Part shown: positions 2,331-36,629 of the stretch, in pieces
How positions within the stretch are numbered: the first letter of the stretch is position 1
Layout: the number at the start of each line of letters is the position of its first letter
Virus record (IMG/VR): IMGVR_UViG_2654587736_000008
DNA: 42,353 bases
Reading direction: 5' to 3' (one strand)
DNA from: a virus
Taxonomy: Duplodnaviria > Heunggongvirae > Uroviricota > Caudoviricetes
The notes under the pieces: model-generated
Databases searched by the model: none
What the model saw: only the letters and a program-made list of their open reading frames with translations
What the model was told of the DNA's origin: nothing
Position numbers and translations under genes: made by a program

Positions 2331-3061
2331 TTCCGCTGCGGCTTCTGCGCGGTCTGCCGCCTTTTCAGCTCGTGTCGCTGCCGACAGAGCCTCATCCTTT
2401 TTCTGCCCGGCCTTTGTTGCGTCTGCTGCAGCCTCCCGCGCTTTTGTGGTGGCGACTCCGGCATTTTCAGCGGCTGACTCTGCATTACGGCGGGAAGCTC
2501 TTCACTGTCTGCGGAGGCTTCTTCTGACGCACGGGCATTTGTCTCTGAACGTTCTGCCGCTGTTGCTGCGTTTTGTGCGGCTGTTTTTGAAGAAGCTGCC
2601 GCTTTCGCGCTGTTACCTGCATTCGTCTCTGATGTTTTCGCCGCGTTCCTGGACGATGCCGCTGCTGTTTCTGATTTCTTTGCTGCCGCTGCGCTCTGAG
2701 AGGCGGCTTCAGCGTTGCGTGCCACATCCTCCACCATTACCTCAAAACGACGCAATGCCTCCGGCATGACATCCTCTTCCGTCATGGCACCCAGAAAATC
2801 ATTCAGCGTCCCCGGCTTAGAATCCTCATACACGGTGATGGTCCCGGCATGTGAAGGCGGAAAACCTTCAACCAGCAGGATAACGCTGTACTGGCCATAC
2901 TCGACATCCATGCTGTAACGTCCGGCTTCATCCGGATTTTCTGAGGCCACCGTGTTCACCACCACCGTGCTGCTGGTCCGTCTGGCCTTCAGCACAATGG
3001 TGCAGTTCTGTACTGGTTTTCCTGTGCCATCTTTAAGCACGCCAGAAATTTTTACTGTCAT
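2327..3061 (-). CDS. stf: Side tail fibre protein, N-terminal portion (lambda Stf-like); reading frame breaks near 2495-2505
   Basis: N-terminus MTVKISGVLKDGTGKPVQNCTIVLKARR...GRYSMDVEYGQYSV closely resembles lambda Stf; the last ~60 residues of this ORF are basic low-complexity, consistent with out-of-frame translation. Confidence 0.7.
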   Translation of the reverse strand: MTVKISGVLKDGTGKPVQNCTIVLKARRTSSTVVVNTVASENPDEAGRYSMDVEYGQYSVILLVEGFPPSHAGTITVYEDSKPGTLNDFLGAMTEEDVMPEALRRFEVMVEDVARNAEAASQSAAAAKKSETAAASSRNAAKTSETNAGNSAKAAASSKTAAQNAATAAERSETNARASEEASADSEELPAVMQSQPLKMPESPPQKRGRLQQTQQRPGRKRMRLCRQRHELKRRQTAQKPQRK

Positions 3062-3075
3062 ACTTTTCCACCAAT

Positions 3076-3106
3076 AAAAAAAGCCCGCAGCAGTGACGCC
3101 ACGGGC
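3076..3106 (-). terminator. Terminator-like hairpin between lom and stf
   Basis: On minus strand GCCCG...CGGGC followed by TTTTTTT; the loop is long, so only moderate confidence. Confidence 0.35.
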
Positions 3107-3212
3107 TTCAGGACAGTGTAACTTTACGTTTCCTCAAACGCAGTTCACTCCATAAGGCGGATGAACCTGCGTATCATAACAATATTTACAGAAGATAAAT
3201 CGGCGTCTGTTG

Positions 3213-27703: not shown

Positions 27704-28069
27704 CTAACGATCCATCTCTAGCTCAATTTCTAACATCATTAACATGCCATCAACTACACCTTCAGCCTTTTGCAATAAACGCCCAACCCAGCAATCAGAA
27801 CGCCCATGTTTACGGGCAAGCGCCATAAACGTCATACCACCTACATAATAATCCACTAATAAATCGTGCAAATCGCTGTTGTTCTTTTTCAGGCGAGCCA
27901 TGCACCCACAAATGATCATCGCGTCATCGTCACAACATTGCGGGCGGGATTTTACTTTTGAAGGGATTAGTCCTTTAAATCCTGCAGCAATAGACGACCA
28001 GGTGACATCCTCGTGATTATTTGCCACCCATGCCCCCCAACGTTCAAGAACCATTTGAATATCACGCAT
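27704..28069 (-). CDS. quuD: Late-gene antiterminator Q (phage 21 / QuuD-type)
   Basis: [14 protein letters not shown]...[18 protein letters not shown]...[11 protein letters not shown], as remembered for DLP12 QuuD; ATG 28069 with SD GGAG (ORF track begins at a TTG 28084). Confidence 0.8.
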
Positions 28070-28086
28070 CAACTTTCTCCACAAAA

Positions 28087-29082
28087 TCAGGCCAGCACGC
28101 CAATTGCCAGCGCACGATCGATAAAACGAAATATCAGCTCCAGTTGGGAGCCATACTTCTCTTCAAATGCCACGGTATCCGCATGCAGCTCGTCGTGATG
28201 CTTTCTGCACAAAGGCAACACAAAAAGGTCATGCGCTTTTGTTCCCATTCCACCCTGACCGTGACCTATCAGGTGGTGGGGATCATCAGCAGGCTTTCCA
28301 CAACATGCACACGGCTGTGTCTTAACCCAGCGCGTGTACTTTTCATTAACCCAGCGGCGACGTTTTGGGCGTAACATAAAAGACTCCGGCGACTCTGGAT
28401 CCACTTTCAGCGCCAGCACCTTTTTCGCTTTATCCTGGATGATGCTGGTGGCAGGAACCGAAGGCACAAGGTCACTTTCCCGGGTGACAGACGGCACAAC
28501 AGGCTTCGGTAATCTCAGTGCCTTACGGGCTGCACTTTCCGGTAAGGCATCCGCCAGGTCATTACGAATCAGCCACCAGCACAGTTCCGGCATTGTCACA
28601 ACGTGACTGTCATCAAAACCGAGATCCCGACGCACAACAGACAACACCCAGCGGGTACAGTTATCCGTTGCCATTGATTCCAGCCGTTCCGTGAACTGAT
28701 CGCGCAGCTGGTTATCGCAGTGCCAGCACAGACGGATTGCGCCCGGCGTGTGTCGCATTGTGGTCATGTTCTCGCTGTGCCAGTCGGAATGAGGCCACTG
28801 GCAACCTTTTTCACGAAGTAACCAGCGTTCAAGACATTCCACTCCACCAGCACGACGGATCACTGCCTCATTGCGGAACACGGCCCGAACGGCAGGATCA
28901 TCCGCCAGCGGTTGTGATGCCGCCGGAACGGCACCACTGGCGAAAGATGAATAACGTTCCGGCTCAGGCTCCAGCAGAACACGCCCCTGCATAAACAGGG
29001 GCATCAGCTCTGAACCTGGCCTGAACAATACGATCCCCATACGCGGGGCAATTTCAGGGGTCAGTAGTGCTCTCACGGTCAC
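28087..29082 (-). CDS. DUF968 family protein (HNH-like Cys/His C-terminal motif)
   Basis: 331 aa; C-terminal [21 protein letters not shown]...CRKHHDELH; start uncertain (GTG 29082 or downstream ATG). Confidence 0.65.
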
Positions 29083-30625: not shown

Positions 30626-31275
30626 GCCGCCATCTCCCTGAGCAGTTTTTCCGCCTGCTGGCGAACCTGCGCCAGAAACGCCTCACCACATGCCTCAAGT
30701 TCATCGCGCCCGATGTAGCTGATTGCCGGTCCCTTCCAGGTCTTGTCAAAAACAGCAATAGCACCAGCGAAGAAAGCTCCTGTCGGCACCTGCTTCTCGT
30801 CTTTCGGGATAAACCAGACAGGCAGTTCAAAACCAATACGCCCGCGAATAAAAGCAATATGATCTGCATCTTCCGGCCACCACACTTCGCTGGTGGCCGC
30901 TTTGATCAGGAAAACATAGCGCCCGCCCTTATCACGCATGACACTGGCATGTTTCATGATGTAACGCATGCCGGTGATGTATTGCCCCTCATGCTGACTG
31001 GCGCGGCTGTATGGGGGATTACCAAAGGCAGCACCTTTAAGCTCCGCAAGACGTTCTGACCAGTCATGCGCCAGCGCGTTATCTTCCGCCGTGTAATACG
31101 CGGCACATTTGGCGTTATCACCGTCAGTAAACAGATCCAGAACAAACGGGCCAAACAGGGTGTTAATTCCCCAGAAAATGTTGTCCGGCGTGCGCCACTG
31201 ATCGCCCACTTCCTTCAGTTCATGGGCTGGTTTGTTCCGCAGTTCCACCAGCGCCTGGCAATATTTATTACTCAT
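30622..31275 (-). CDS. Phage Dam-type DNA N6-adenine methyltransferase (NPPY family)
   Basis: Start MSNKYCQALVELRN at ATG 31275; FGNPPYS motif. Confidence 0.75.
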   Translation of the reverse strand: MSNKYCQALVELRNKPAHELKEVGDQWRTPDNIFWGINTLFGPFVLDLFTDGDNAKCAAYYTAEDNALAHDWSERLAELKGAAFGNPPYSRASQHEGQYITGMRYIMKHASVMRDKGGRYVFLIKAATSEVWWPEDADHIAFIRGRIGFELPVWFIPKDEKQVPTGAFFAGAIAVFDKTWKGPAISYIGRDELEACGEAFLAQVRQQAEKLLREMAA

Positions 31276-31763
31276 TAAGCCCCCACGTAATTCCCTGACA
31301 GATACCACTCTTCACCCGATGCAGCGCGCTTGCTGCTTTTCCGTAAGCACCGCTCACGACGCGCCAGAAAATTGTTTCGTTCTGGCTGGGAGTGGCTTTC
31401 ACGGAATGCCGCCATCCACACGGTTGCAGCACGACGGTATAAGCCCCTGGACTCCAGTTCTTCAGCCTGGCGGGTCAGGCACAAAATCACCCGTGGATCG
31501 TTAGTGCCGACATAGAAATTGCGCACAGGTCTGGTTTCTCGAACTGGTTGTGGTTCCGGTTCCTGCGCTCTCTCAGTCAGGCGCGGGAAATGTCTGCGTG
31601 TATCTCCTTCACAACGGTGAGCCACACGCCCACTCTGACGTAACTTGCTTGCTGACTGCAGAACGCGCTGCCGTGAGTAACCTGCAAAAGCATCCGCAAT
31701 GTCTCCGGAAGTACACCCCGGATGGGCTTCAATGAATTTCTGAACTTCATTCAAAAGACTCAT
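31275..31763 (-). CDS. PerC/Pch-like transcriptional regulator domain protein
   Basis: C-terminal AEELESRGLYRRAATVWMAAFRE...RRERCLRK resembles the PerC family signature; N-terminal ~90 aa unassigned. Confidence 0.5.
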   Translation of the reverse strand: MSLLNEVQKFIEAHPGCTSGDIADAFAGYSRQRVLQSASKLRQSGRVAHRCEGDTRRHFPRLTERAQEPEPQPVRETRPVRNFYVGTNDPRVILCLTRQAEELESRGLYRRAATVWMAAFRESHSQPERNNFLARRERCLRKSSKRAASGEEWYLSGNYVGA

Positions 31764-31765
31764 GA

Positions 31766-32584
31766 TCACCCCCTGAATCCTGCCGGGATCTGGCTGTAGT
31801 CCACGTTGTCGTAACTGGCTTTGAAGTACGGGTCCTCGCGTCTGGCTGCAGATACCGCAGGAACTTCCCAGGATTCTTCGAAATGACGATCCGGACCAAA
31901 GAACGTAACAGCCTGTTTCACAAATTGTGTGCCGCTGTTACCCATCGCAGATACCCAGCCCGCGTAGCGTTTCACACCTTCCAGCATGGTTTCGGGGTTT
32001 ACCCCCTCATTCAAACGGGCTTTCCAGGCTTTGAAGGCTGCAGATTTTGAATTGCCACCAGCACGTTTGGGATATACCAGCCATGCCTGCTCAAACTCCG
32101 GAGAGTATTCCGGTCGGTTTGAACGAACTCGCACGGACTCATCAACTGATGCACCAACAGCTATTGGTTCATTGACTGGTTCTTTGACTGGTTCAAAAGA
32201 GTGACTGGTTCTGGGTGAATCTCCTGCACTACCCCCTGGTGCAACTCCTGCACTACCTGGTGAATTTGCTGCACCAGATAGTGAATTATTTGCACTACCC
32301 CCTAGTGAATCTCCTGCACCATCCAGATGAAGGAGATAGATATTACTTGAGTTACCTTTTTCACCTTTCCGGGTGACTTTTTTTACCAGCCCGGACTCAC
32401 AAAGGGCCGCAATATGATTCATCACAGAACGTTTGCTAATCTCGCACTGGTCAGCAATATGCTGGTAGCTGGGCCAGCACTCCCCCTGATCGCTGGCATT
32501 ATCAGCCAGCTTGATCAGAACCAGTTTTCGCAATGGATTACCCACTCGAATTTTCATCGCTTTAACCATCAGCTCCATACTCAT
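31766..32584 (-). CDS. Replication initiator (O-like, N-terminal wHTH) containing the origin iterons
   Basis: 272 aa; N-terminal wHTH; Gly/Ser/Ala-rich central linker encoded by the DNA repeats; conserved C-terminal domain. Confidence 0.65.
   Translation of the reverse strand: MSMELMVKAMKIRVGNPLRKLVLIKLADNASDQGECWPSYQHIADQCEISKRSVMNHIAALCESGLVKKVTRKGEKGNSSNIYLLHLDGAGDSLGGSANNSLSGAANSPGSAGVAPGGSAGDSPRTSHSFEPVKEPVNEPIAVGASVDESVRVRSNRPEYSPEFEQAWLVYPKRAGGNSKSAAFKAWKARLNEGVNPETMLEGVKRYAGWVSAMGNSGTQFVKQAVTFFGPDRHFEESWEVPAVSAARREDPYFKASYDNVDYSQIPAGFRG
32165..32325. repeat. Iteron-like direct repeats (candidate ori) inside the initiator gene
   Basis: At least three copies of TGACTGGTTC followed by about five ~21-bp repeats with core TCCTGCAC(T/C)A. 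Confidence 0.6.
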
Positions 32585-32805
32585 GCAGCACCTCCGAGAT
32601 GCTTCATGTTTTTTCCGGAGCGAAAGGCTATAAGCGGCATACTGACGCGGTAACTACGGCCCAGCGGTTCACAAATCACCTTCTGACATTCACGGTCAAC
32701 CAGGCTAACACGTAGAACATGCCCTGCAGGTGTGGTGTACCACTGACCCGGACGAGGACAACGGAAAGTCTGATTGGTAAACCGTTTGAAAATATTCCGG
32801 ATCAT
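32581..32805 (-). CDS. Hypothetical protein (74 aa)
   Basis: ATGA-coupled to both neighbours. Confidence 0.45.
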   Translation of the reverse strand: MIRNIFKRFTNQTFRCPRPGQWYTTPAGHVLRVSLVDRECQKVICEPLGRSYRVSMPLIAFRSGKNMKHLGGAA

Positions 32806-33953
32806 TTGCGCCCCCTTACCTCTGAAGGGTTCAGCGACAAATTTATGAGGCAGGCCAGTGCCGAAGCATCATTAATATAGTCATACAAGCTAACAGCCAG
32901 CGGAGATTCGGCTTTTGCCAACATAGGATAAAGCTGCTGCAGCCAGACCTGATGAATTGATGAAATGTAGGAATAGAGAACGCTGGCGTTATGTGCAACG
33001 TCGCTCAGTACAGAGGGATTTGAAAGCTGTTTCTCCATCTGGTTAAAGGCATTGATGTATGCCTCTTTGAACTGGGCAGCACGTTTACCCGTGAAACCCA
33101 TAGCAAGAAACGCAAAGCCGTCGCGGGTTATTTGATAGCAAGGTAGTTTGCGGCCTGTGCAATCGGTGTAATCACTCGCCGAAAAATTGCGGGAAGTGAA
33201 TGATGCAGAGCATTCAAGCGTGCGGATCTTTTTCAGTACATCGTCATGACGTTTGGAGAAGAAGTTGGCAACAGCCAGGGATGAAGTAACAGCCTGACCA
33301 TCAACGATGGCAATTTCAGGTTGAGTGAGGGTTGGGATCGTAGCCATGATGGCAGCCTCTTTGGTGATTTTTAATAACTCACCACCAAGGCTTTCCACGA
33401 CCTTATTGGTGGTGAGACGTACAGGGGTGGAAATACCGGTCACCAAAGAACCCGGCCCAACCGAAGTTGGCCCTGCACGCCCCACCATAATTTGGGCGTA
33501 ATGCTGCTCATTACACAAAAAAACCGCAAGAGCGCGGTTGTGCGCTTTGGTGAATTCCGAGTTTCCACGCCCGGCACCCGCTTTATAAGGTGCCTGAACA
33601 GTGTAACGTCCCGGAATGGCAGAATCAATGTGCTGGTGGTCCTTCACACTCAACAAAATCACGCCTGAATTTCCACAAAGGACTAAAGCACTCATGCGGG
33701 TAGTCTTTGCGAAGATAGATAACGCGCTGTGTTTCTGGCTCCCAACGAATAACATGGACATAAAGCCCTCTTCCGTCACGAAACCAGCGGTTAAGTTCCT
33801 GCACAACTCGCCCCCCACAGTCAGGTAAAGTTCTCTGTGGTTACTTACAGCCAAGTGATTTGGTAATCTGCATTCATGCCGTAACAACAGGTGTTCAGCG
33901 ACACTGACCACCAGCTGTTGCGACAAACGGTTATTTGCCGTTAAACTGTTCAT
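32802..33953 (-). CDS. Rha-family phage regulatory protein with a ~200-aa N-terminal extension (alternative start ATG 33348)
   Basis: pRha domain (IAIVDGQAVTSSLAVANFFSKRHDDVLKKIRTL...YQITRDGFAFLAMGFTGKRAAQFKEAYINAFNQMEKQL) in the C-terminal half; the ORF is open to ATG 33953, which overlaps the upstream stop (ATGA). Confidence 0.6.
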   Translation of the reverse strand: MNSLTANNRLSQQLVVSVAEHLLLRHECRLPNHLAVSNHRELYLTVGGELCRNLTAGFVTEEGFMSMLFVGSQKHSALSIFAKTTRMSALVLCGNSGVILLSVKDHQHIDSAIPGRYTVQAPYKAGAGRGNSEFTKAHNRALAVFLCNEQHYAQIMVGRAGPTSVGPGSLVTGISTPVRLTTNKVVESLGGELLKITKEAAIMATIPTLTQPEIAIVDGQAVTSSLAVANFFSKRHDDVLKKIRTLECSASFTSRNFSASDYTDCTGRKLPCYQITRDGFAFLAMGFTGKRAAQFKEAYINAFNQMEKQLSNPSVLSDVAHNASVLYSYISSIHQVWLQQLYPMLAKAESPLAVSLYDYINDASALACLINLSLNPSEVRGRK

Positions 33954-34501
33954 GCGTTAGTTTCTCCACAGACACAAAACGCCACGACGCCCGGAGCTGC
34001 ACACTCGCGGGCGTCACTCTTTTCTGGAGCGCAGAAGATTTTGTAGACCAGTGCTGCATGCTCCTGGAGCTTCGAAATTGACAGATACAACTCATCATTA
34101 ATTGCTGTCTGCTCGTGTGGCTCCACGACCCCATCTTCGATTGCCGAACGAATCTGCTTTGAGTAATTCCCGATCTGTTCGATGACTTCCAGCAGGCGCT
34201 GGTTTATATCGGCGTTCTCTACTTCCTCAATTTCAGGAAGCGATACGAACACCCCACCAGCAGACTGTGCGACAGCATCCGCAATGTAGTGAGTGCCAGC
34301 CGCGCGCTGTAAAACCATTGCCCATCCCAGCGGGAAAATCTGATCGCCATCTGCACGAAGGCGGTTGAATAAAGCGTTCTCTGTTACATCCAGCCAGTCA
34401 GCAGCTTCAGCGTAACCCCCAGGCAATGCCGCGATAGTTTTTCTGACAGCTTTCACGTACCACTCAGGTTGTTTTTCCACTTTCCAATGATGCTTACCCA
34501 C
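33950..34501 (-). CDS. YdaT-like (CII-position) regulatory protein
   Basis: 183 aa; GTG start with SD AGGAGGT; sits immediately downstream of cro as in Rac ydaS-ydaT. Confidence 0.45.
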   Translation of the reverse strand: MGKHHWKVEKQPEWYVKAVRKTIAALPGGYAEAADWLDVTENALFNRLRADGDQIFPLGWAMVLQRAAGTHYIADAVAQSAGGVFVSLPEIEEVENADINQRLLEVIEQIGNYSKQIRSAIEDGVVEPHEQTAINDELYLSISKLQEHAALVYKIFCAPEKSDARECAAPGVVAFCVCGETNA

Positions 34502-34754: not shown

Positions 34755-34851
34755 ATAACCTCCACATATTGCGTGATGAGCATATTATTTCACGCAAATA
34801 TTTTGCGCAAGTTGATTTGCTTAACGCGCAATAAAGAAATGTAATAAACGC
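34755..34851. promoter_or_regulatory. Divergent cI/cro promoter-operator region (OR-like)
   Basis: Repeated half-sites TTGCGTGA / TCACGCAA / TTGCGCAA / CGCGCAA in 97 bp. Confidence 0.7.
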
Positions 34852-35544
34852 ATGAACATAGGAAATCGAGTCAGACAACTTCGCCAGGCGAAGAACATGA
34901 AAATCGCCGATCTCGCTGAAGCAATAGGAGTGGATGCGGCGAATATCTCGCGCCTCGAAACAGGTAAGCAGAAACAATTCACTGAACAAGCCCTGAGTAA
35001 TATTGCCAGGAGCTTAGGTGTTGATATTGCTGATCTCTTTACCTCAGACCTCAAAAGTAATACTGTATGTAAAAACAGTATTAGTGAGGATGTTGCGCAG
35101 GTGAAGGATGTATTCCGTATTGAAATGCTGGATGTCAGTGCCAGTGCGGGAAATGGCCTTATCCAGGGCGGTGATGTCATTGATGTGATTCATGCCATTG
35201 AATACAGAACTGATAATGCTGTATCGATGTTTGGTGGACGACCAGCAAATCACATTAAAGTTATCAACGTTCGTGGGGACAGTATGTGTCCAACCATTGA
35301 GCCAGGAGATCTCATCTTCGTTGATATCAGTATCAATCAGTTTGATGGGGATGGTATATATGTATTTGGTTTTGATGATAAAATTTACGTCAAACGACTG
35401 CAAATGATACCTGATAAACTGCTGGTAATTTCTGATAATCAGATTTACCGCGAATGGGGAATTACCAGCGAAAACGAACACCGGTTTATGGTCTTTGGAA
35501 AGGTCTTAATCAGTCAGTCACAAACCCTTAAGCGACACAATTAA
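34852..35544 (+). CDS. cI: CI-type prophage repressor (HTH plus S24 LexA-like peptidase domain)
   Basis: 230 aa; N-terminal HTH; Ala-Gly (SASAGNG) candidate cleavage site; S24 Ser in GDSM and Lys in VKRL. Confidence 0.85.
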   Translation: MNIGNRVRQLRQAKNMKIADLAEAIGVDAANISRLETGKQKQFTEQALSNIARSLGVDIADLFTSDLKSNTVCKNSISEDVAQVKDVFRIEMLDVSASAGNGLIQGGDVIDVIHAIEYRTDNAVSMFGGRPANHIKVINVRGDSMCPTIEPGDLIFVDISINQFDGDGIYVFGFDDKIYVKRLQMIPDKLLVISDNQIYREWGITSENEHRFMVFGKVLISQSQTLKRHN

Positions 35545-35565
35545 CCCCCTACCTCAACATCAATT

Positions 35566-35590
35566 AGCCACCAGAAGGTGGCTTTTCATT
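35566..35590 (+). terminator. Intrinsic terminator after cI
   Basis: AGCCACC-AGAA-GGTGGCT followed by TTTTCATT. Confidence 0.6.
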
Positions 35591-35592
35591 AC

Positions 35593-35645
35593 TCACGCTA
35601 TTGCATATCTCGCAACAAAACACTTGCACATTACGCAATTTCATT
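35593..35645 (+). promoter_or_regulatory. Candidate OL/pL region
   Basis: Operator-like half-sites (TTGCATATCTCGCAA, TTGCGTAAT revcomp) similar to those in OR. Confidence 0.35.
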
Positions 35646-36083
35646 TTATCTTTCTTTCCAGACCAACAAACAAGGTCCTAACAAAATTTGGTTGTAACAC
35701 GGCGTATGGCACATGCGTCGTTAGCGGTCTGGGGACGTTAAAGGGGACAATCCACTCCTTGCTCGAGCAGACAAACCAGGTAGCCGGAATGTGCAAGTCA
35801 ATGAGGATGCTGATAAGACGCCTAACCAGCGTGGCGATTCGGTTTGACGCCTGGGAAGAGACCAGGGTGCAACGATGAGGGCATTTATGGAACCGCGACA
35901 AAGTGTGGTGCCGTAACTGGCTAAGTGCTCTCAGCGTTGTGGTGAATGCGCAGGCTGATGCGCGAAAGACATTGCAGCTATTGCGGAAAAGAGCTGTTCG
36001 GCGGGGCAATTAAACGCCCGTGAGAGTCTGAAATAACCGCAAGCCGGAGATCAGCACCGGTCACCACAACAGCCACTGCTTTG

Positions 36084-36129
36084 GCGGTACCAGTTTGTAC
36101 ACTTGCTTCCGGCTGGTACCGCTCTTTTT
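36084..36129 (+). terminator. Strong hairpin with T-tract in the pL leader (tL-like)
   Basis: Perfect 10-bp stem GCGGTACCAG/CTGGTACCGC (19-nt loop) followed by TCTTTTT. Confidence 0.5.
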
Positions 36130-36266
36130 ACAAAACAGAGAAGAGCATCACCGGACGACGGGCTCATAACCCAATCCATCCGGGCGGCAGTCACCGCAGG
36201 TGTTCTTCTCTGTTTTGTGGAGAAACCAACCGACCTTGCAGGGTCGATATGATGAGGAGCAGCAAA

Positions 36267-36629
36267 ATGGCTAGCGAACGCAGTACTGATGTGCAGGCAT
36301 TTATCGGGGAGCTGGACGGCGGCGTATTTGAAACCAAAATCGGCGCTGTTCTCAGTGAAGTCGCTTCCGGTGTGATGAACACGAAAACCAAAGGTAAGGT
36401 CTCGCTCAACCTGGAAATCGAACCGTTTGATGAGAACCGTGTGAAAATCAAACACAAACTCTCATATGTTCGCCCGACTAACCGCGGGAAAATTTCTGAA
36501 GAAGACACCACCGAAACGCCGATGTATGTCAATCGCGGTGGTCGCCTGACTATTCTGCAGGAAGACCAGGGACAATTACTGACTCTTGCCGGTGAACCTG
36601 ACGGAAAACTCCGCGCAGCAGGTCATTAA
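36267..36629 (+). CDS. yfdP: YfdP-like protein (CPS-53-type early gene)
   Basis: 120 aa from ATG 36267 (MASERSTDVQAFIGEL...) with SD GAGGAG. Confidence 0.55.
   Translation: MASERSTDVQAFIGELDGGVFETKIGAVLSEVASGVMNTKTKGKVSLNLEIEPFDENRVKIKHKLSYVRPTNRGKISEEDTTETPMYVNRGGRLTILQEDQGQLLTLAGEPDGKLRAAGH

Follow-up and report, generated by a model that had tools for sequence, protein, structure and literature searches.

A probable mosaic of conserved RNA modules in the early-left leader of a lambdoid prophage without an N-like gene

The window analyzed here is a stretch of 42,353 nucleotides from a virus (Duplodnaviria; Heunggongvirae; Uroviricota; Caudoviricetes; IMG/VR record IMGVR_UViG_2654587736_000008), and the element in question is the leader that separates its cI-type repressor gene from the first early-left gene, yfdP (35545-36266). 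The window is a lambdoid prophage whose closest phage is mEp460 (97.9% identity across 35400-36400). The leader lies in the position of a pL leader, with approximately 600 untranslated nt between pL and yfdP, and is probably made up, in mosaic fashion, of three conserved and structured RNA modules (A, B, and C) on the + strand. In the reading that we consider the probable one, A and B together constitute a non-coding RNA (ncRNA) cassette ended by a working terminator, which insulates the early-left operon and is followed by a structured 5′ untranslated region (5′-UTR). Module B and its 3′ tail correspond to sRNA-17, a small RNA (sRNA) of 193 nt that was identified by rapid amplification of cDNA ends (RACE) and Northern blot in an mEp460-like prophage of Escherichia coli K1 RS218 (PMC7719688). 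The initial annotation of this DNA, which was made from the sequence alone, had noted a leader without N, a terminator, and an inverted repeat; its mosaic build, from three conserved RNA modules that are each distributed independently, was missed.

Organization and coding potential of the leader

The features of the leader are as follows; all are on the + strand.
35686-35890, module A, a conserved, structured, pseudoknot-prone RNA (RNAalifold, pair counts, distribution)
35700-35720, first hairpin of module A (covariation)
35850-35866, hairpin CCUGG-GAAGAGA-CCAGG of module A (covariation)
35922-35938, conserved 5′ flank of module B, which reads AAGUGCUCUCAGCGUU here and CAGUGCUCUUUCCGUU in other phages, where it holds the boxA-like GCUCUUU
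35935-36128, sRNA-17, i.e., module B and a 3′ tail with the terminator hairpin (primers of Table S2, PMC7719688)
35936-36070, module B, a tRNA-like scaffold RNA (covariation, conserved halves)
within 35936-36070, closing stem of module B, GUUGUGGUG/CACCACAAC
35946-36023, 25-codon open reading frame (ORF), rejected as a gene (variant spectrum; no family match)
35948-35963, hairpin 1 of module B, with loop GGCUGA
36043-36061, hairpin 2 of module B, with loop AGAUCAGCA, placed after a variable insert of approximately 80 nt
36084-36129, intrinsic terminator with a 10-bp GC-rich stem, a 19-nt loop, and UCUUUUU
36084-36262, extent of module C, comprising the terminator, a long helix, and a small hairpin before the ribosome-binding site (RBS) of yfdP
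36125-36223, core of module C, the long helix capping a three-way junction (RNAalifold, pair counts)
36151-36183 (with invariant GGGCUCAUAACCCAAUCC) and 36184-36197, junction hairpins of module C (folding)
36230-36247, small covarying hairpin CCGACC-UUGCA-GGGUCG, with compensatory changes in four of its six pairs

Similarity searches split the leader at approximately 35680, 35923, and 36081, and the distribution differs from piece to piece. Part of the leader is present in 2644 of 5426 complete E. coli genomes, and the modules were found in P1, Stx-converting, epsilon15-like, T1-like, and Ackermannviridae phages as well as in prophages of several proteobacterial classes. Folding of the + strand at 35640-36270 gave a better result than shuffled sequence (z = -4.8), with none of 20 shuffles as good. 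Covariation across homologues, which the initial annotation had proposed as a check, supports all three modules: none of 500 shuffles reached the covariation score of A, B, or C, and every slid control was far lower. The homologue sets behind these scores were collected by exact-match patterns, and the conservation of the searched words is in part circular.

Each of the three modules retains G.U and U.G pairs solely when read as the + strand, which points to an RNA of that strand. This strand bias also bears on whether the conserved elements act as DNA, with the halves of module B and the inverted repeat of module C serving as recombination or junction sequences or as protein-binding sites. 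The module borders do coincide with mosaic break points, and the halves of B are extremely conserved, stems included. However, the pairing is preserved by compensatory changes, and an RNA of the predicted extent (sRNA-17) has been detected experimentally. We regard a role at the DNA level as very improbable.

As the initial annotation had stated, the leader contains no N-like gene: Pfam, PHROGs, and a scan for Arg-rich ORFs all gave no candidate. The five small leader ORFs had no Pfam matches and a single match in PHROGs, where a 49-aa ORF fell into a family of unknown function (PHROG 33599), and none of them matched an N or antiterminator family in either database. The Arg-rich ORF scan of the whole window likewise gave no credible N candidate. 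Among ten right-side ORFs scanned against PHROGs, the only antiterminator-type match was a Q-like protein.

Other annotators have called ORFs in this region (mEp460_036/037 and three in phiSTEC1575). Together with the PHROG 33599 match, and with a module C frame that in the window is open and in frame with yfdP, these calls favor hidden small protein genes, namely an N-like Arg-rich peptide, the 49-aa or an 84-aa ORF, or an N-terminal extension of YfdP. The 25-codon Arg-rich ORF, singled out by the initial annotation as the only peptide candidate, does exist. Nevertheless, every change seen among 19 unique variants that share its insert was non-synonymous or disruptive, including two start-codon losses, two premature stops, and one frameshift; moreover, its start codon falls within hairpin 1 of module B. 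The N-terminal extension of YfdP through module C was rejected as well, its frame being broken by stops in diverged homologues and by a 25-nt insertion in one of them. Across the leader the compensatory base changes preserve RNA helices, not codons, and PGAP calls no gene in it, just yfdP under the region, across thousands of E. coli genomes. That protein genes lie hidden here is highly improbable, and both the coding and the DNA-level readings are disfavored.

Modules B and A

Module B belongs to a widespread, unclassified family of phage RNAs with a tRNA-like layout and a variable insert at the place of the anticodon arm. Its members consist of two conserved halves, GUGGUGAAUGCGCAGGCUGAUGCGC and AAGCCGGAGAUCAGCACCGG(C/U)CACCAC, around an insert which is unrelated from phage to phage and between 12 and more than 170 nt long. 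Among 71 distinct half-pairs, the three stems showed 12 compensatory pairs with 96.9% of cells paired. Six pairs with compensatory changes lie in the closing stem, which is about 8-9 bp long. In hairpin 1, GCGCA/UGCGC changes to GCACA/UGUGC, GCGUA/UACGU, or GCGAA/UUCGC, and in hairpin 2 CCGG/CCGG changes to UCGG/CCGA, CAGG/CCUG, CUGG/CCAG, or UUGG/CCAA. GCUGA in loop 1 (35954-35958) is complementary to UCAGC in loop 2 (36051-36055), and the GCUG/CAGC core of this match is kept despite a length of loop 2 that ranges between 7 and 13 nt. The stems measure 8 + 4-5 bp and 5 bp, and the minimum free energy fold of the sRNA sequence alone yields a four-way, cloverleaf-like junction.

The 5′ half of B, a 25-mer, was found as an exact match in at least 120 viral contigs and, among GTDB species genomes, in 51 that span the Proteobacteria. 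These genomes include Enterobacterales, Aeromonas, Marinobacterium, Moraxellaceae, Lysobacterales, six Janthinobacterium, Massilia, Undibacterium, Xenophilus, Martelella, and one metagenome-assembled genome of Geobacteraceae. In Massilia, B begins 2 nt after tRNA-Gly and tRNA-Pro comes next. In Aeromonas and Rouxiella a tRNA gene lies 9-40 nt after B (9-60 nt in three genomes overall), and in phiV10 a tRNA-Arg gene, following module A, starts at the exact base where B starts in the window. B is thus often placed at tRNA positions in tRNA arrays and combines an acceptor/T-like coaxial stack with a D-like arm.

The tRNA-like domain of transfer-messenger RNA (tmRNA), the bacterial Y RNA YrlA, and engineered tRNA scaffolds resemble B in having a closing stem, two short arms with loops able to contact one another, and an anticodon arm replaced by foreign RNA, and the location of B among tRNA genes is a further likeness to tRNA-like RNAs. 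B differs from these RNAs in its non-canonical T- and D-loops, a putative loop contact of 4-6 Watson-Crick pairs, the 8-9 bp closing stem, and the absence of CCA. That B is a true tRNA was considered and rejected, as it has no anticodon arm, non-canonical loops, no encoded CCA, and no score with a tRNA model. ARAGORN found no tRNA or tmRNA in the window, and RF00005 at E<=10 matched neither the window copy of B nor a minimal 62-nt copy. A common anticodon-like arm was sought in the inserts and none was found, and an encoded CCA is not enriched after B.

In Rfam 15, a search of the whole window at the gathering threshold returned just a C4 and an isrK RNA, both outside the leader. Searching the leader at E<=10 gave matches that were noise, the minimal B copy likewise gave no match, and in 13 diverse loci only tRNAs were found and nothing for A, B, or C. 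No tmRNA or bacterial Y RNA model of Rfam 15 matched the leader modules, and literature searches with the conserved RNA words gave no match. The absence of an Rfam homologue for sRNA-17 had already been reported (PMC7719688), and our search agrees. None of the three modules is represented in the examined protein-centred annotations or in Rfam, and some phage records call spurious ORFs at these places. While sRNA-17 itself is published, the structure of the B family, its spread, and its relationship to tRNAs appear to be undescribed, as do A and C as conserved RNAs.

We tentatively suggest, as a possibility that is more doubtful than not, that B is the first representative to be recognized of a novel phage RNA class, an ultra-conserved tRNA-elbow-like scaffold which the tRNA-processing machinery of the host would excise from tRNA arrays or early operons, with module A forming a second new class at the 5′ end of such units. 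The scaffold would carry a freely exchangeable insert and might serve, for example, as a decoy or regulator against a universal host partner. Should B indeed be a tRNA-like scaffold whose inserts can be exchanged, engineered tRNA scaffolds would have a natural counterpart in it, and phage-host RNA biology would gain another player.

Copies of B were also seen outside the mEp460 group. P1 (AF234172; locus L003, 1811-1906) has a complete copy at approximately 69820-69915, which is unannotated and lies antisense to the annotated plp/upl ORFs; those ORFs may be spurious. A module A copy follows in P1 at 3001-3185 of the same locus (71010-71194 of the phage), 2 nt after trnI and before ban. It is 78% identical to module A of the window and also unannotated. 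Both copies lie on the strand of the ban operon (a C1-controlled promoter, a dicF-like region, three tRNAs, and ban), B being downstream of tRNA-Thr. In contrast to the window, P1 has no yfdP-type module C. In SfV (locus L288, 1650-1790) a divergent B-like element precedes the same terminator and module C; its closing stem GUGGUG/CACCAC is kept, whereas the hairpins differ and the loops are non-complementary. The SfV gene in the N position, orf33, encodes an acidic, not N-like product. In swi2 (locus L005, 911-1285) ARAGORN reports a ‘tmRNA’ extending over the B motif and the neighboring tRNA-Met; the tRNA-like ends have almost certainly misled the program here.

Upstream of B, the conserved flank carries GCUCU[UC] at a fixed position of -12 in 67 of 162 unique B flanks (41%), compared to 1.2% in the background. 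This raises the prospect of rrn-type Nus/boxA antitermination, in which the flank, placed ahead of B or of the tRNA, would load NusB/NusE, shield the untranslated cassette from Rho, and possibly aid read-through. The published boxA consensus is GYTCTTTAANA (PMC5725501), another form of boxA being CGCTCTTA, and the family flank GCUCUUUCC matches the first seven positions of GYTCTTTAANA. An untranslated cassette, which is often a tRNA array, would suit such a role, and the collection from which mEp460 originates has been described as one of Nus-dependent coliphages (PMC11893012). However, where every functional boxA has A residues after its run of U, the flank has C, and the window itself reads GCUCUCA, altered at a U that, when mutated along with C4, inactivated the boxA of suhB (PMC5725501). 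The flank is also missing from 59% of contexts. Furthermore, boxA complexes oppose chiefly Rho, not intrinsic terminators. Antitermination through this flank is, in our estimate, improbable.

Module A lies upstream of B. In an alignment of 25 diverse copies, its first hairpin showed 12 G-C to A-U exchanges, and 98.9% of cells in the module were paired, with compensatory changes in eight pairs. A long-range stem GCGGUCYGG/CYRGGUAGCC encloses a variable hairpin, another stem encloses a second variable hairpin, and the hairpin near the 3′ end reads CCUCG-GAAGAGA-CGAGG in the alignment. From the sequence, a pseudoknot between GCACAU (35709-35714) and AUGUGC (35800-35805) is possible, both partners being invariant in the sample. 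The 19-mer GGUAGCCGGAAUGUGCAAG of this module occurs as an exact match in at least 120 IMG/VR contigs, and an intergenic stretch of phiV10 is 83% identical to module A. Downstream of A, 35 of 123 unique contexts have B and 23 have tRNA-Arg(UCU) at the same distance; in the remaining 65, neither is found within 420 nt. One of the latter (locus L256) reads as a terminator just 3′ of A. A stringent promoter lies within 50 nt of A in 9 of 90 contexts, the background being 1.8%. Three loci (L216, 5150-5950 on the - strand; L223; L233) combine an HK022-like cI and pL with module A at the position of putL in HK022. They also have a HicA/HicB-like pair between cI and pL, as judged by eye from the translations, and the terminator and long-helix unit before a first gene other than yfdP.

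Transcript ends and read-through of the leader

The hairpin and T-tract that the initial annotation had placed at 36084-36129 can be read directly from the sequence and were also returned by a repeat finder. GCGGTACCAG (36084-36093) pairs perfectly with CTGGTACCGC (36113-36122), and TCTTTTT follows at 36123-36129. A consensus terminator scan missed this site solely because its loop limit was 8 nt. The site has the GC-rich hairpin and U-tract of an intrinsic terminator and, according to literature mapping from RS218, a transcript 3′ end in the U-tract with yfdP near-silent beyond it. Terminator-like sites occur within 150 nt after B in 88 of 181 unique contexts, compared to 16% in the background. 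A hairpin with a T-run stands at the same place in all diverged homologues of module C, with differing stem sequences, and it precedes each homologue, also those before a different first gene.

The full-length, RACE, and Northern primers of sRNA-17 map to approximately 35935-36128 in the orientation of a + strand RNA, and the supplementary alignment fits this placement. The 3′ RACE end, at about 36128, lies inside the U-tract of the reported hairpin. sRNA-17 of RS218 therefore has the same sequence, strand, and 3′ end as B with its terminator in the window. The initial annotation had listed a small RNA among its options, and this option proves correct and already published, the terminator being the 3′ end of sRNA-17 (PMC7719688). 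The amplicon used for quantitative reverse transcription PCR in the same study spans 35686-36081 on the window and covers both A and B, so the two modules are co-transcribed. As such A-B transcripts exist, the 5′ end of sRNA-17, at the foot of the B closing stem, looks processed. By RNA sequencing, yfdP had 0.49 reads in the wild type, a value that fits an effective barrier, whereas the strain with the deletion gave 47 (PMC7719688).

In the published account, sRNA-17 acts in trans, is controlled by ArcA, is specific to the strain, and has a structure drawn from Mfold (PMC7719688). Going beyond this, the present analysis adds a fold supported by covariation, the design of conserved halves with a variable insert, the occurrence in tRNA arrays, the spread across Proteobacteria, and the position in a pL leader. 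Because the deletion also alters the cis-acting control region of the early-left operon, the published sRNA-17 phenotypes would need to be re-read.

Immediately after the terminator, the inverted repeat noted by the initial annotation, CAAAACAGAGAAGA (36131-36144) with its complement 59 nt away (36204-36217), was recovered and found to be longer than described. Its arms extend to 36130-36154 and 36194-36218 (25 nt, 84% complementary), and T-tract 36125-36129 with GGAGA at 36219-36223 adds five further U-A/U.G pairs, giving a helix of approximately 25-30 bp in total. By our own calculation, about 1e-4 perfect inverted repeats of 15 nt, no more than 120 nt apart, are expected by chance in 722 nt. 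In 11 sequences the 24-pair helix was 98.5% paired and showed changes from A-U to C-G and from G-C to C-G. Its 24 predicted pairs exceed the at least ~20 bp of near-continuous double-stranded RNA characteristic of RNase III sites. The 5′ arm begins in the terminator U-tract, so the helix forms on read-through transcripts only. In phages with HK022-like immunity the terminator and helix, with the tail UUGUGGAGAAGCUAAC, precede a different first gene; the unit is thus a feature of how early-left operons begin, and not of yfdP itself.

Two further observations concern words within module C. AACCCAAUC (36168-36176), invariant in its apex, recurs just 3′ of B in many phages (CACCACAACCCAAUCAC). The tail UGUGGAGAAAC(C/U)AAC (36216-36233, +) recurs at the end of the cII-like gene (33958-33973, - strand), and a left/right pair in the manner of nutL/nutR was considered on this account. 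It was rejected since the right-operon copy is coding, its 15/18 match is at chance level (approximately 3 expected, own calculation), and homologues show no covariation between the helix words on its flanks.

Taken together, these data suggest how the leader might work. Modules A and B would be transcribed jointly, either from pL leakage or by read-through from cI, and stop at 36084-36129. B would then be trimmed from the longer A-B transcript to sRNA-17, with its 5′ end at the foot of the closing stem. The terminator would both make the sRNA 3′ end and, in the lysogen, bar transcription of the immunity region and leaky pL transcription from the early-left operon. On transcripts that pass it, the long helix may serve as a double-strand processing, stability, or translation element in the yfdP 5′-UTR. 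An RNase III-like role comparable to that of the site in the lambda N leader is conceivable, and the processing site suggested by the initial annotation remains a reasonable view of this helix. The lambda pL leader resembles that of the window in being long and untranslated, in having a large hairpin before the first early-left gene, and in having a terminator that parts lysogenic from lytic transcription. It differs in carrying nutL and an RNase III site before N, whereas the window has no N, a degenerate boxA-like word, and separate ncRNA modules, and the RNase III role is here a prediction. No boxB-type stem of 5 bp with a purine-rich pentaloop was noticed on reading the leader, although no search dedicated to boxB was made.

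The other option put forward by the initial annotation was an RNA-based antiterminator like HK022 put, made from the hairpin and the inverted repeat. More generally, module A or the helix of C could bind RNA polymerase in cis and replace N by processive antitermination. The likeness to putL/putR lies in a phage RNA just after the early promoter of an N-less lambdoid phage. A Q-like gene is present while no N-like gene was found, and the Nus-dependent collection from which mEp460 derives is in keeping with such a mechanism. Moreover, A is promoter-proximal in independent contexts, as seen in the promoter counts above, and in L216 and L223 it follows an HK022-type pL at the putL position. The first hairpin of A also has a CGGCG/CGUCG stem, CAUG, and AGCG in common with putL stem I. 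This likeness, however, is limited to one 9-mer and its 6-bp stem, with chance alone predicting about 0.3 9-mers of this kind (own estimate), and it does not extend to putR. The conserved residues of put make up an A9-G35 platform and the stem I/II interface, and the critical G35 has no counterpart in A. HK022 put is a ~70-nt element with two stems that is present in both early operons as putL and putR. Module A, in contrast, is ~190 nt with at least four helices and also occurs away from promoters, being mid-operon in P1 and stand-alone before a terminator elsewhere. A, B, and C are all single-copy, with no second copy in the window or its right operon apart from the rejected coding match. 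In addition, the inverted-repeat helix sits downstream of the very terminator it would have to suppress, and in the wild-type lysogen yfdP is silent although transcripts with A and B exist, these still ending before yfdP. Antitermination of the put type is therefore unlikely and not supported for this leader; for module A it is a weak lead.

Several points weigh against an RNA cassette closed by an insulating terminator. The loop of the terminator is large (19 nt) and its U-tract is interrupted, which makes its efficiency uncertain. The rise of yfdP in the deletion strain could be read-out from the resistance cassette, in the orientation that we take this cassette to have, and the rise thus does not measure terminator strength. 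The transcript evidence comes from the RS218 lysogen, not from this exact prophage or from induced cells. In that study module A is treated as a promoter and not as an RNA, and RACE did not separate primary from processed ends (PMC7719688). The covariation between the loops of B is thin, with one compensatory case and seven G.U pairs. Exact-match collection kept parts of each motif from varying, so two tertiary contacts, the one between the loops of B and the pseudoknot in A, are barely tested proposals. The RNase III-like role of the long helix is itself inferred. Finally, early-left expression after induction is left unexplained by a terminated cassette, which sharpens the question of how N-less lambdoid phages get past a conserved terminator right after pL.

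Immunity region and neighboring genes

The leader is flanked by the following features, all on the + strand.
34852-35544, cI-type repressor gene with a helix-turn-helix and S24 peptidase (Pfam Peptidase_S24, HTH_3; PHROG transcriptional repressor)
35566-35590, weak terminator-like hairpin 3′ of cI, with a 7-bp stem (hairpin 35566-35583) and then TTTTCATT (terminator scan)
35601-35615 and 35624-35638, operator-like TTGC-N7-GCAA sites (pattern search)
35624-35652, candidate pL, with TTGCAC at 35624, a 17-nt spacer, and TATCTT at 35647
36254-36629, yfdP, the first early-left gene, with the RBS GAGGAG at 36254-36259 and ATG at 36267 (alternative ATGs at 36249 and 36252; PHROG 204)

The cI gene and the leader are on the same strand, and mEp460 and its relatives annotate the gene as cI or prophage repressor. 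cro and a cII-like gene are oriented oppositely to cI and the leader. A third TTGC-N7-GCAA site lies at 34817, between cI and cro; the whole window has five such sites against 1.7 expected, and three of the five are within the immunity region. Judged by its sequence, TTGCAC-17-TATCTT is a pL promoter candidate. Homology to phages of other immunity begins at approximately 35680, which indicates that the immunity module ends there. On the other side of the leader, yfdP is followed by yfdQ and yfdR.

In the right operon, the Q-like antiterminator is encoded at 27704-28084 on the - strand, immediately preceded by the gene of a large HNH endonuclease (28087-29082). A PerC-like transcriptional activator is also found in this operon (31275-31769, - strand). 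The two Rfam matches of the window, a C4 antisense RNA (33405-33492, 83.6 bits) and an isrK RNA (33517-33593, 62.5 bits), are both on the - strand. They fall within a 383-aa ORF (32802-33953) that is called ‘regulatory protein Rha’ in the mEp460 annotation, and the 5′ third of this ORF is probably non-coding. The arrangement of the two RNAs is like that of the P1/P7 immI (c4-icd-ant) and Gifsy-1 isrK-anrP modules.

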